Below, piece by piece: positions 54,860 through 58,275 of a stretch of 64,000 nt of DNA. The notes under the pieces are model-generated. The model searched no databases, had not been told where the DNA came from, and saw nothing but the letters and a program-made list of their open reading frames with translations. Made by a program: the position numbers and the translations under genes. The stretch is from the NCBI GenBank assembly GCA_963422395.1, contig OY729431.1, forward strand, positions 1,376,001 to 1,440,000, given 5' to 3'. Position 1 is the stretch's first letter; each line of letters begins with the position of its first letter. Origin of the DNA: Vicinamibacteria bacterium. GTDB lineage: Bacteria; Acidobacteriota; Vicinamibacteria; Marinacidobacterales; Marinacidobacteraceae.

Positions 54860-55201
54860 GTGAGTCTGGTCGGCCGCGCCTTCGGGACCCGGAAGCCGTT
54901 CATCCCGGCCGATGAAATCGATGCCCTGATCGAGGGGGGGAGCGTGCTCCTGCTCGATGTGCGGACCGCGAAGGAAGTCGAGGAAGCGGGCACGATTCCT
55001 GGAGCGGTGCACATCCACCTGGGAGAGCTGGCGAGACGGCTCGACGAGGTACCGCGCGACCGGCCGGTGCTCCCTACCTGAATGGTGGGGCCCCGCGCTG
55101 CGCGTGCCGCGGCCATTCTGGAGAACGCAGGGTTCGAGGTCGTCGGGTTTTCGGGTCTCCGGCACTACCTCGGCACCCGCGAGTTCCGGCCGATGGCATG
55201 A
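54860..55201 (+). CDS. Rhodanese-domain selenoprotein A (predicted Sec at TGA 55079-55081)
   Basis: LLDVRT..E...GTIPGAVHI...VLPT-[TGA]-MVGPRAARAAAILENAGFE. The rhodanese fold continues in frame past the TGA. Confidence 0.85.
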
Positions 55202-55248
55202 TTCCGAAACTGTCTTATCCCGGGGGAGGATCCATGGAAGAGTTTCCC

Positions 55249-55638
55249 ATGAAGAAAATGCGTCTGTTTTCCGCGACGGTATTGACGGCGGCGGCACTCT
55301 TCGCAGGTTGTGGAGGGGGTGGAACCGCCGCACCCCGCGTGGAAGCATCCGACATAGACGAGATGCTGGAGAGCGGAGTGTTGCTTCTCGATGTGCGCAC
55401 CGACGAAGAGCTCGCCGAGCACGGCACCATCGAGGGTTTCCGGCACATTCCGATCGACGAACTGGAGGCGAGGATCGGAGAACTTCCGAAGGGAGTTCCC
55501 ATCCTCACTGCTTGACAGGGTGGCGGAAGAGCCGCGCGTGCCGCGGAGCTGCTCGAGTCGAACGGATATGAAGTCGCGGGGTTCTGCGGCCTGATGGGCT
55601 ACGAAGGCGACCGGGTCTTTCCCGAATCGGGGAGTTGA
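55249..55638 (+). CDS. Rhodanese-domain selenoprotein B, lipoprotein (predicted Sec at TGA 55513-55515)
   Basis: Lipobox LFAGC. LLDVRT...ILTA-[TGA]-QGGGRAARAAELLESNGYE. Alternative start at 55234. Confidence 0.85.
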
Positions 55639-56352: not shown

Positions 56353-56374
56353 ATAGCAGACATTTGTCTGCTAT
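56353..56374. promoter_or_regulatory. Perfect palindrome over the lexA promoter, candidate LexA operator
   Basis: ATAGCAGACA-TT-TGTCTGCTAT overlaps the minus-strand extended -10 TGcTATATT, which ends 7 nt before the GTG. Confidence 0.65.
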
Positions 56375-56488: not shown

Positions 56489-57307
56489 TCAGAAGGGGAC
56501 CGGATCTTCTCCACCGCCCCCGGTGTCCATCCCCGAAGATTCGGTTTCGGAACCAGCACCGGAGGCGCCCCAGGGATCTTTAGGTTTCTCTTTCTCCCGC
56601 CGATCGGAGCCGCCTGCCCGGCTCGCCGCATCGTCATACCCGCGCTGCTGACGCGAGTCTCCGCTCGAGAAAACGATGTGGGCGCGAGTCTCCGTCGCCC
56701 GACGCTCCCGCCCGGTCTTGTCGGTGTACTTCCGACTTTGGAGGTAGCCCTCGGCGAACGCTCGCTGCCCCTTTTCGAGCTGGCCGTCGAGACGCCGAGC
56801 CGAGTCTCCGAAAACAGCAACCTGGTGCCATTCGGTTTCTTCTCCCGTCTCTCCGTCCCGCCGGGTCCATGTCTCATTGGTCGCGATCCGGAGATTCATC
56901 ACCACGAAAGACGGGTACTCCCGCAGCTCGGGTGCGCGGCCGAGGTTTCCCAGGATGAGCGAACGATTGAGGTGCGGTTCCGGATTTTCCGGACGTTTCA
57001 CGATGTCGGCGCTGATCTCGGTCGCGTACATATCCTCACCGTCCTTTTGATACTTCCGGGTCCGCAGCCTCCCTTCGACATACACCGGAGTGTCCGCCGC
57101 CATCCCTTCGGCGACCTCCACATTCCGCTGTCCGCGAACCGACACCCGGTGCCAGGCAGGGCGCTCCCGCAGGGCGCCGGTGTCGTCGTTCTCCATGGTG
57201 ACGGTCTTGACATTCAGGTTCACGACTTTCCGACCGTCGTCGAAAGTCCTCGTGCGCGGCGGCTCGGTCAGCATCCCGCGCAACAGCACCTTGCTCACAT
57301 CTCTCAT
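56489..57307 (-). CDS. ssb: Single-stranded DNA-binding protein with two tandem OB folds
   Basis: Two repeats of WHxV...VEGxLxxRKY...TE, acidic tail EDPVPF. Confidence 0.9.
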   Translation of the reverse strand: MRDVSKVLLRGMLTEPPRTRTFDDGRKVVNLNVKTVTMENDDTGALRERPAWHRVSVRGQRNVEVAEGMAADTPVYVEGRLRTRKYQKDGEDMYATEISADIVKRPENPEPHLNRSLILGNLGRAPELREYPSFVVMNLRIATNETWTRRDGETGEETEWHQVAVFGDSARRLDGQLEKGQRAFAEGYLQSRKYTDKTGRERRATETRAHIVFSSGDSRQQRGYDDAASRAGGSDRREKEKPKDPWGASGAGSETESSGMDTGGGGEDPVPF

Positions 57308-57342
57308 GACCCCTACTCCCTTTGGCCGCCTCAGCGGCCGGT

Positions 57343-58275
57343 TCACGCGCCGGGGTTTTCCGGGGGCATGGCGTCGAGCTGTCTTTTCGCCGCGCGCGCC
57401 GCCGGGGTTCCGGCATAGACCTCCAAGATGTCCTCGAAAATTTCTCGGGCGTCGGATTCGTGACCCAACCGTCCGAGGATGATGCCCTTCTGGAACCAGG
57501 CCTCTCCGATCTTGTTGCTGTCCGGAAAATCCCGGATCAGCATTTCGAACTGCTCGAGTGCGGCTTCCAGCCGTTCTTGTGCCAGCAGCGAGTCTCCGAT
57601 TCCGTAACGGGCGTTGTCCGCCAGCTCTCCGCCGAACTCGATCACCCGCTCGAAACCCGAGATCGCCAGTTCATAGCGGCCCTGCAGCCGATCGGCGTCC
57701 GCTTCGAGGTAGGTCTCGGCGATGCCCGGTTCGTCCAGTAGCGTCGCTTCGTCTTCTCCTCCGGCGGGCGTTTCGGAGCCCGCGCCGTCGGCTTCGGCAG
57801 GTGGTGCTTCGCCCGGGTCCGCTTCATCGCTTCCGGCTGCCGGAACGCCGGCGAGCGCTGCTCGGCGCTGTGCCTCCCGGACCGACTCCACTTCGACCAT
57901 GAGTTCCGAGAGTCGGTCGTTCGTCTCCCGGAATGCCTCGCTCAGGGTCGAGACATTCCGCTCCATCCGGTCGAGAGCGTTCCGGGTCTCGGCCCGGCTG
58001 CGGCGGTCTGCGGCGATCTGCTCGGAGCGCTCCTCGAGCAGTGCTTCGACTGCGCGGGAGAGGCCCTCCTGCGTTTCGGCCAGCACCGCGAGCTGCGACT
58101 GGATCTGTCGGATCTCCGAGAGGATGCGGTCCTGGCCGCGCTGCCCGGCCGGCCGCGCCAGAGCCTCGGGAATTCCGGAGGGATCAGCGGTTGCCGCCGA
58201 GACGACGAAGAGCATCGAGGGCAGCAGCCACGCAGTTCGTGGTGCCCATCGCGGCGCCCGCAGGAGCCCGTTCAT
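57343..58275 (-). CDS. cpoB: Tol-Pal TPR protein CpoB/YbgF
   Basis: Coiled coil plus TPRs (ADNARYGIG, FPDSNK), downstream of pal. Confidence 0.85.
   Translation of the reverse strand: MNGLLRAPRWAPRTAWLLPSMLFVVSAATADPSGIPEALARPAGQRGQDRILSEIRQIQSQLAVLAETQEGLSRAVEALLEERSEQIAADRRSRAETRNALDRMERNVSTLSEAFRETNDRLSELMVEVESVREAQRRAALAGVPAAGSDEADPGEAPPAEADGAGSETPAGGEDEATLLDEPGIAETYLEADADRLQGRYELAISGFERVIEFGGELADNARYGIGDSLLAQERLEAALEQFEMLIRDFPDSNKIGEAWFQKGIILGRLGHESDAREIFEDILEVYAGTPAARAAKRQLDAMPPENPGA

Follow-up and report, generated by a model that had tools for sequence, protein, structure and literature searches.

The 64,000-nucleotide stretch of a Vicinamibacteria bacterium genome analysed here (hereafter the window; contig OY729431.1, positions 1,376,001 to 1,440,000) carries two adjacent, paralogous rhodanese genes on its forward strand, gene A and gene B, each of which is interrupted by an in-frame TGA and then continues in the same frame to a second, terminal TGA (Table 1). 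Past the internal TGA, predicted to encode selenocysteine (Sec, U), gene A runs for 39 more codons (UMVGPRAARAAAILENAGFEVVGFSGL...) and gene B for 40 (UQGGGRAARAAELLESNGYEVAGFCGL...). Both read-through products match the Pfam rhodanese model PF00581 well above its gathering score of 22.2 bits (46.1 bits for A, 43.6 bits for B), with a match that crosses the TGA in each case. The two proteins are 52% identical over 97 residues, and their internal TGAs fall in the same aligned column. For gene B, this column aligns with the catalytic cysteine of solved rhodanese domains ('iltaCQgggR' against 'iiifCQvGlR' in 3nta, and likewise in 3icr), and the active-site loops are six residues long in both proteins, UMVGPR in A and UQGGGR in B. 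Coordinates, alignment, and Pfam matches therefore agree with an earlier note, made from the DNA letters alone, which had described a tandem pair of rhodaneses with a TGA at one aligned catalytic-cysteine position.

Table 1. Coordinates of the rhodanese pair and associated features. Positions are those of the window unless a genome or locus label is given.
Feature	Position	Strand	Description
Gene A	54860..55201	+	GTG start; 113 aa with U74; single-domain rhodanese, cytoplasmic-type
In-frame TGA of gene A	55079..55081	+	Codon 74, predicted Sec codon; catalytic-Cys column, LPT-U-MVGPR
SECIS-like hairpin of gene A	55097..55113	+	Stem GCUGCG / CGCGGC (one U-G pair), loop CGUGC; +19..+35 from U of UGA
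Terminal TGA of gene A	55199-55201	+
Gene B	55249..55638	+	ATG start; 129 aa with U89; exported lipoprotein-type rhodanese (predicted)
Possible earlier in-frame ATG starts of gene B	55234, 55198	+
Lipobox of gene B	55297..55311	+	L-F-A-G-C, end of predicted signal peptide, Cys21; sequence pattern
In-frame TGA of gene B	55513..55515	+	Codon 89 from 55249, predicted Sec codon; catalytic-Cys column, LTA-U-QGGGR
SECIS-like hairpin of gene B	55532..55546	+	Stem CCGCG / CGCGG, loop CGUGC; +20..+34 from U of UGA
Second conserved Cys of gene B	55585..55587	+	G-F-C-G-L; possible resolving or partner thiol; Ser in gene A here
Terminal TGA of gene B	55636-55638	+
Peroxiredoxin candidate	G000:C1 ~1214403-1215077; locus L081:1004-1678	-	AhpC-TSA 80.9 bits across TGA
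senA in locus L062	3452-4771	-	NF041186 SenA
senB in locus L062	4765-5715	+	TIGR04348 SenB

Conservation of the TGA codons and of the downstream frame

The internal TGAs are neither chance occurrences nor sequencing errors. Identical letters are found at both positions in contigs from four public runs belonging to three studies, one run possibly being the source of this DNA. We searched 60 relatives in six frames, including the 27 other genomes of the same family and 27 genomes of two sister families; the tally takes in an unpublished genome (G036) with weak, stop-free matches only, on which no claim is based. Both genes were recovered in 26 of the 27 other family genomes with exactly one TGA each, A-type copies matching at 65-77% and B-type copies at 48-54% identity, and the sole miss (G020) is a genome that is 89% complete. 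B-type copies with one TGA were also present in 15 of the 27 sister-family genomes (45-52% identity). Further afield, TGA-form B homologues were detected in 15 of 150 other genomes of the phylum at E <= 1e-12 (14 of 149 when the unpublished genome G107 is excluded), and a further two had stop-free matches. The TGA occupies the identical column in all 22 distinct A-type and all 43 distinct B-type copies from related genomes, and the sequence that follows is strongly conserved (UMVGPRAARAAAILE..GFEV.GF[SC]GL for A; U[QN]GGGRAARAA.LL..NG[YF]EV.GFCG[LM] for B). The GTG start of gene A is an ATG in aligned relatives.

Sequence downstream of the TGA is under purifying selection, like the part upstream. 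The ratio of nonsynonymous to synonymous substitution rates (dN/dS, Nei-Gojobori) before versus after the TGA was 0.116 versus 0.138 for A, 0.137 versus 0.137 for the B-type copies of the family, and 0.130 versus 0.170 for the other B-type copies, and it remained at 0.12-0.17 beyond the hairpin described below. This conservation past the TGA supports the core reading of the earlier note. Among the full-length homologues in the protein database, all ten that were aligned (50-58% identical) carry a cysteine at the TGA column, in the context ILTAC[QNR].G.RA, and retain the GFCGL motif, which is the Cys/TGA pairing that the note had proposed to look for.

Structural modeling of gene B likewise points to a complete domain. 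An AlphaFold2 model built on a 15-row alignment had a predicted local distance difference test score (pLDDT) above 90 over residues 31-120, the post-TGA part included, with U89 at the end of a strand (85-89) that is followed by a helix (93-104) and a further strand (109-114). The top Protein Data Bank matches of this model in Foldseek were the rhodanese domains of 3icr, 3nta, 5ve3, and 8a56, followed by stand-alone rhodaneses. In the model, the Sec position heads the six-residue loop between the central strand and the helix, as in catalytically active rhodaneses.

Alternatively, the TGAs could be true stops, the genes being pseudogenes or encoding deliberately short products of 73 and 88 residues, with the downstream frame left untranslated. 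Public gene calls do end at the TGA, and many of the related database entries are short (86-107 aa) and lack a Pfam domain, i.e., they are cut at the TGA, as the earlier note had anticipated for standard annotation, while entries of ~107-165 aa carry PF00581 and are full length. Yet the TGA and the frame behind it are kept in dozens of genomes at the low dN/dS given above, the truncated products would, according to the model, be missing the active-site loop, one helix, and one strand, and homologues have a cysteine instead of the TGA. We therefore consider true termination extremely improbable.

A quick maximum-likelihood tree of 82 rows and 86 columns, in which many forks were unresolved, recovered A (support 99), the family B-type copies (97), and a group made of the other B-type copies and nine phylum-level copies (92). 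These three form an unresolved trichotomy nested in a clade (66 rows, support 99) that consists solely of Sec forms. Outside it stand the cysteine homologues, and six distant Sec forms make up a clade of their own.

Reading of UGA and a shared downstream hairpin

The genome, a single contig of 2.9 Mb, encodes a complete Sec machinery. A search for the four genes named in the earlier note returned each of them above its curated cut-off: tRNA-Sec (selC; 69.7 bits against a 47-bit cut-off, and called SeC with anticodon tca by ARAGORN), selA (478.6 bits), selB (292.8 bits), and selD (255.4 bits). The match to selD, at G000:C1:327523-328467 (+) of this genome (locus L016), is part of an 879-aa open frame, much longer than a plain SelD, so that a fusion protein is possible; selD itself is not a Sec form, since there is no stop inside its frame. 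Across the phylum sample, selA was found in all 15 genomes with TGA-form copies and in 120 of the 150 genomes overall (the unpublished G107 and G083 counted), a co-occurrence that is consistent but weak because selA is widespread in the sample.

We also identified a third selenoprotein candidate in this genome, a secreted-type AhpC/TSA peroxiredoxin with an in-frame TGA (G000:C1 position 1214774) at the peroxidatic position (..DWTGG-U-TRQ..), which suggests that the Sec machinery is in use. This gene has a 7-bp hairpin at +16..+32, unlike that of the rhodaneses. It was the sole good candidate from two coding-potential scans for further selenoproteins. These scans had low sensitivity, missing gene B both times and gene A in the second.

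A hairpin follows the TGA in both genes. When the 54 nt from each TGA were aligned for 50 distinct sequences, RNAalifold, unaided, proposed one helix pairing columns 20-24 with 30-34, which reaches 19-35 in most sequences and encloses a CGUGC loop, replaced by CGGGC in some A copies. At pair 21-33, 44 sequences have C-G, three have U-G, and three have U-A, and none breaks the pair; the covariation score is reached by only 2 of 500 column shuffles. All pair positions include third positions of alanine or arginine codons, and synonymous diversity is reduced there: in the family B-type copies it falls to 0.00 (0.29 elsewhere), the minimum among 79 seven-codon windows (codons +4..+11, 22 sequences), and in the other B-type copies to 0.17 (0.39 elsewhere), with the hairpin accounting for the three lowest of 62 windows. 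Ten phylum-level copies at 52-64% identity retain this hairpin core without change. In a more remote subgroup the hairpins are different ones at a comparable distance, and two of these have the CGUGC/CGGGC letters at an unchanged offset within a re-paired stem. The bSECISearch program expects the loop G ~16-37 nt downstream of the UGA. In its distance, its G and U in the loop, its frozen synonymous sites, and its one covarying pair, the predicted hairpin fits a bacterial selenocysteine insertion sequence (SECIS). An Rfam search of window positions 40000-64000 returned nothing at gathering score.

These observations make it almost certain, as judged from sequence comparison, that the internal UGA of both genes is decoded as Sec. 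Insertion of tryptophan, cysteine, or glycine instead, through near-cognate or suppressor decoding or an altered code, would account for the downstream conservation by read-through alone. Nevertheless, genes in this genome mostly stop at TGA, which terminates 379 of 496 long open reading frames (ORFs) with high G+C at third codon positions, and the terminal TGAs of A and B are swapped for TAA or TAG in some orthologues, from which it follows that TGA is not reassigned genome-wide. The placement of the internal TGA in the catalytic-cysteine column, the full Sec machinery, the conserved hairpin at SECIS distance, and the presence of selA in every phylum genome with TGA-form copies likewise argue against another residue, and we regard this alternative as highly improbable.

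Localization, chemistry, and gene context

A and B differ at their N-termini. Gene B begins with a basic n-region and a hydrophobic h-region that end in a lipobox (MKKMRLFSATVLTAAALFAG-C, a pattern match). Among distinct relatives, no signal or lipobox pattern was found in any of the 22 A-type N-termini, whereas in 41 of the 43 from the B type a hydrophobic stretch leads up to [GAS]-C, in most cases with a linker rich in Gly, Pro, Glu, or Ala behind it. A stricter lipobox core pattern fits 26 of the 43; the remaining lipoboxes comprise 13 G-W-G-C, one A-W-G-C (L025), and one that fits a relaxed pattern only (L057). The two exceptions are a signal-less second copy beside a lipoprotein copy (G052) and a 5'-truncated copy next to a transposase-like ORF (G045). 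B is thus probably exported and lipid-anchored. Signal-less B-type copies outside the A clade occur twice (L048, the G052 copy in tandem with a lipoprotein copy, and L091, a second copy in G062), and cytoplasmic derivatives of the B type seem to have evolved more than once. The second cysteine of B, in GFCGL, is kept in 42 of the 43 B-type copies, while A-type copies have serine in 17 cases and cysteine in five. The LFAGC lipobox and the contrast between GFCG in B and GFSG in A are present in the window as the earlier note described them, and sequence patterns across these relatives support its view of A as lacking a signal peptide and of B as a lipoprotein with an extra cysteine.

Taken together, these results point towards a reading that we consider very probable as a whole, in which A and B are intact selenoproteins. 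SelB and Sec-tRNA(Sec) would read the internal UGA as Sec during translation, directed by a short G+C-rich hairpin with a CGUGC loop that starts 15 nt past the UGA, within the R-A-A-R-A-A codons at the start of the helix. The products would be complete rhodanese domains of ~100 residues with Sec heading the loop U-x-x-G-x-R, A remaining in the cytoplasm and B being exported by its lipoprotein signal, tethered to a membrane through Cys21, and oriented towards the periplasm. The closest rhodanese domains of known structure suggest, by analogy, that Sec would most likely hold sulfane sulfur (Se-S-) or selenium (Se-Se-) transiently and hand it to a thiol or other acceptor.

Several observations weigh against parts of this reading. 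Four of the six hairpin pairs are invariant, hence uninformative either way, and the covariation lies on one pair alone. Synonymous diversity at the hairpin of A (0.27 against 0.42 elsewhere) ranks only sixth of 68 windows, and the conserved peptide RAARAA accounts for part of the nucleotide conservation in this region. Folded singly, the 62 nt after each TGA are no stabler than shuffled sequences (z = -0.06 and +0.61), so that support for the helix is comparative only. A genome-wide scan for TGA codons with open flanks and a hairpin of this kind returned 31 hits, with no other convincing gene among the ten translated besides A and B; since the peroxiredoxin hairpin also differs, a shared SelB-binding consensus does not emerge from these genes. 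G-W-G-C, the commonest lipobox variant among the B-type relatives (15 of 43), has an atypical tryptophan at -2. Finally, that Sec is in fact inserted, that B is lipidated, which chemistry takes place, and whether A and B cooperate at all are matters of inference in this reading.

Ten hits of the hairpin scan besides A and B were translated and rejected, three being CRISPR-repeat hits and the rest wrong-frame ORFs. The CRISPR array concerned lies at G000:C1 ~2535600-2537550 in the window's own genome and has the repeat GTTTCAATCCGCGCCCCCCGTGCGGGGGGCGAC, whose CGTGC-loop hairpin produced the false hits.

A different chemistry is possible, though we hold it to be unlikely: A and B could be selenoproteins that act as thiol or selenol oxidoreductases, with Sec passing through a selenenic acid or a selenenylsulfide, in B together with the GFCGL cysteine. 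Comparable periplasmic disulfide chemistry can be supported by PspE of E. coli. The near-universal second cysteine of the B type, which all ten cysteine homologues share, is in line with such a role, as is the extracytoplasmic placement of B, at a site where thiol redox upkeep matters. The observation that most predicted bacterial selenoproteins are redox proteins, made in a 2022 review (PMC9312934), also favors it. Conversely, 17 of the 22 A copies retain Sec without a second cysteine, the six-residue loop is of sulfurtransferase length, and the closest solved relatives handle persulfide.

Gene context identified the pair itself as a unit. Upstream of it lie rpmB (L28) and an M14 peptidase gene, and downstream lexA and ssb on the other strand; among 37 related loci, rpmB/M14 recurs in two and lexA in none, which makes the A-B adjacency the sole linkage kept across the family. 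No recurrent partner was found in the sister-family contexts, and a scan for promoters and terminators gave nothing significant and placed no terminator in the A-B gap. Within one genus of the family, the pair adjoins senA (convergent) and then senB, in 15 of the 20 loci from the genome search (L022-L041) and in 16 of the 18 from named records (L062-L079), which are largely the same genomes. These genes score 481 and 474 bits for SenA (cut-off 420) and 413 and 417 bits for SenB (cut-off 300). Neither SenA nor SenB was found above cut-off in the genome of the window, where the best SenA-model hit (293.8 bits) is probably an EgtB-type enzyme, nor in the examined loci of the other four family genera.

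This context raises the question of whether A and B form a two-compartment selenium or sulfur relay, as a cytoplasm/periplasm pair, in which B would capture the chalcogen outside and A would deliver it to SelD or to selenoneine synthesis. The conserved A-B linkage amid flanks that rarely recur, the senA/senB neighbors, and the tandem of a signal-less and a lipoprotein copy in G052 are compatible with such a relay. They are offset by the missing SenA/SenB in the window's genome and the other four genera, by the membrane that lies between A and B with no adjacent transporter gene, and by duplication, which alone can explain the adjacency of tandem paralogues; furthermore, senA is convergent to the pair, so senA and the pair are not one operon. 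The relay for Se/S transfer or redox that the earlier note suggested has nothing beyond the conserved adjacency in its favor. We consider the dedicated relay improbable, and give equally little credence to a joint reading that would combine an A-B chalcogen module spanning the inner membrane (Se-Se or Se-S on B, with A passing it to SelD and, in the genus with senA and senB alongside, to selenoneine synthesis) with a separately mobile B-type unit of ~0.7 kb.

Multiple B-type copies were seen in some genomes, with seven TGA-bearing matches in G045, within a unit of ~0.7-0.8 kb (L098-L101 in G045, G039, and G030; also L045, L047, L051-L056, and L058). Identity among copies of this unit is 96-99.4%, both inside single genomes and across genomes from two families, and the copies sit among many dispersed repeats of 90-330 nt in both orientations; one copy is the 5'-truncated one beside the transposase-like ORF. 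The ~0.7-kb unit may be a small mobile cassette.

Two further observations concern the downstream neighbors. A perfect palindrome with 9-bp arms, ATAGCAGACAAATGTCTGCTAT (window positions 56353-56374), overlaps the lexA start (56363, minus strand) and a promoter-like site, and is likely a LexA autoregulatory (SOS) box. The product of ssb (56489-57346, minus strand) is 285 aa long and matches the SSB domain in two stretches (Pfam 135.5 bits), i.e., a tandem oligonucleotide-binding (OB) arrangement, not the usual single domain.

Relation to known rhodaneses and selenoproteins

The best sequence and fold matches were the rhodanese domains of persulfide enzymes, namely Shewanella Npsr (3nta), Bacillus CoADR-RHD (3icr), Burkholderia PRF (5ve3), and Enterococcus CoAPR (8a56), with a sequence E-value of 2e-10 and a Foldseek E-value of 6e-8 at 38-41% identity and a root-mean-square deviation of 1.1-1.6 A. 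Their catalytic cysteine aligns with U in a common loop C/U-Q-x-G-x-R; however, these enzymes use cysteine and have the domain fused to a flavoprotein or dioxygenase, whereas A and B are stand-alone and B is predicted to be exported. Stand-alone rhodaneses of ~100 aa with a similar split between compartments are known from E. coli as GlpE (cytoplasmic, 1gmx) and PspE (periplasmic), but both use cysteine, and the likeness is distant: the GlpE and PspE models score 24.7 and 16.4 bits, far under their family cut-offs, and 1gmx matches at an E-value of 0.0046. PspE has an ordinary signal peptide and is not known to carry a lipobox.

The practical consequence of these results is an annotation correction, applying to this lineage and to at least seven other Acidobacteriota families (150 genomes sampled), in which such genes are filed as hypothetical proteins of ~90-105 aa that break off at the catalytic residue. 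Gene B also adds to the exported selenoproteins a well-documented member with a probable lipid anchor, and the pair offers a clear example of dual coding, with a SECIS hairpin freezing the synonymous sites of the R-A-A-R-A-A codons. Natural Sec/Cys pairs are provided in which the contribution of selenium to rhodanese chemistry can be probed. No new category is opened.

Two leads to known families were rejected. The family NF041203 (rhodanese_LYCAU, 'rhodanese-related (seleno)protein', form 3) likewise consists of small rhodaneses with Sec in the active-site region, but A and B score only 22.1 and 17.1 bits against its cut-off of 115, and carry LPTU and LTAU motifs, not C-x-U. The ExtH rhodanese of Geobacter was also discarded, as the selenoprotein of that cluster is ExtKL, not ExtH (PMC5877670).

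Rhodanese-like selenoproteins in environmental bacteria, to which the earlier note referred, are indeed on record. The selenoprotein families listed as new in the Sargasso Sea study include a 'rhodanese-related sulfurtransferase' with three sequences (PMC1088965), eight rhodanese-related selenoprotein genes are counted in the selenoprotein account of Olavius symbionts (PMC1976440), and the rhodanese entries of the 2022 review mentioned above already separate several forms (PMC9312934). A 2026 review distinguishes five rhodanese selenoprotein forms, of which forms 2 and 4 ('rhodanese-related sulfurtransferase') belong to PF00581 and have a UxxG motif (PMC13188914). The novelty implied in the earlier note was therefore overstated, UxxG rhodanese selenoproteins being on record in such catalogues from 2005 onwards (PMC1088965; PMC13188914). 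Our searches found no paper in the searchable library on a Sec rhodanese in sponge Acidobacteria, nor on selenoproteins of Vicinamibacteria. The signal-less/lipoprotein pairing, the dual-coding hairpin common to both genes, the distribution across Acidobacteriota, the ~0.7-kb multi-copy unit in some genomes, and the senA/senB adjacency in one genus appear undescribed in the searchable literature; the first three, with the CGUGC loop, are also not mentioned in the tables of UxxG forms that were consulted. Like forms 2 and 4 as described there, A and B have a PF00581 domain, Sec in place of the catalytic cysteine, and a U-x-x-G motif (UMVG and UQGG), and the logic of prediction is the same, a TGA/Cys pair plus a SECIS. 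The match is at the level of domain and motif, and applies to forms 2 and 4 alike. On the evidence of their sequences, A and B are genuine Sec rhodaneses of an already known type, routinely mis-annotated as truncated.

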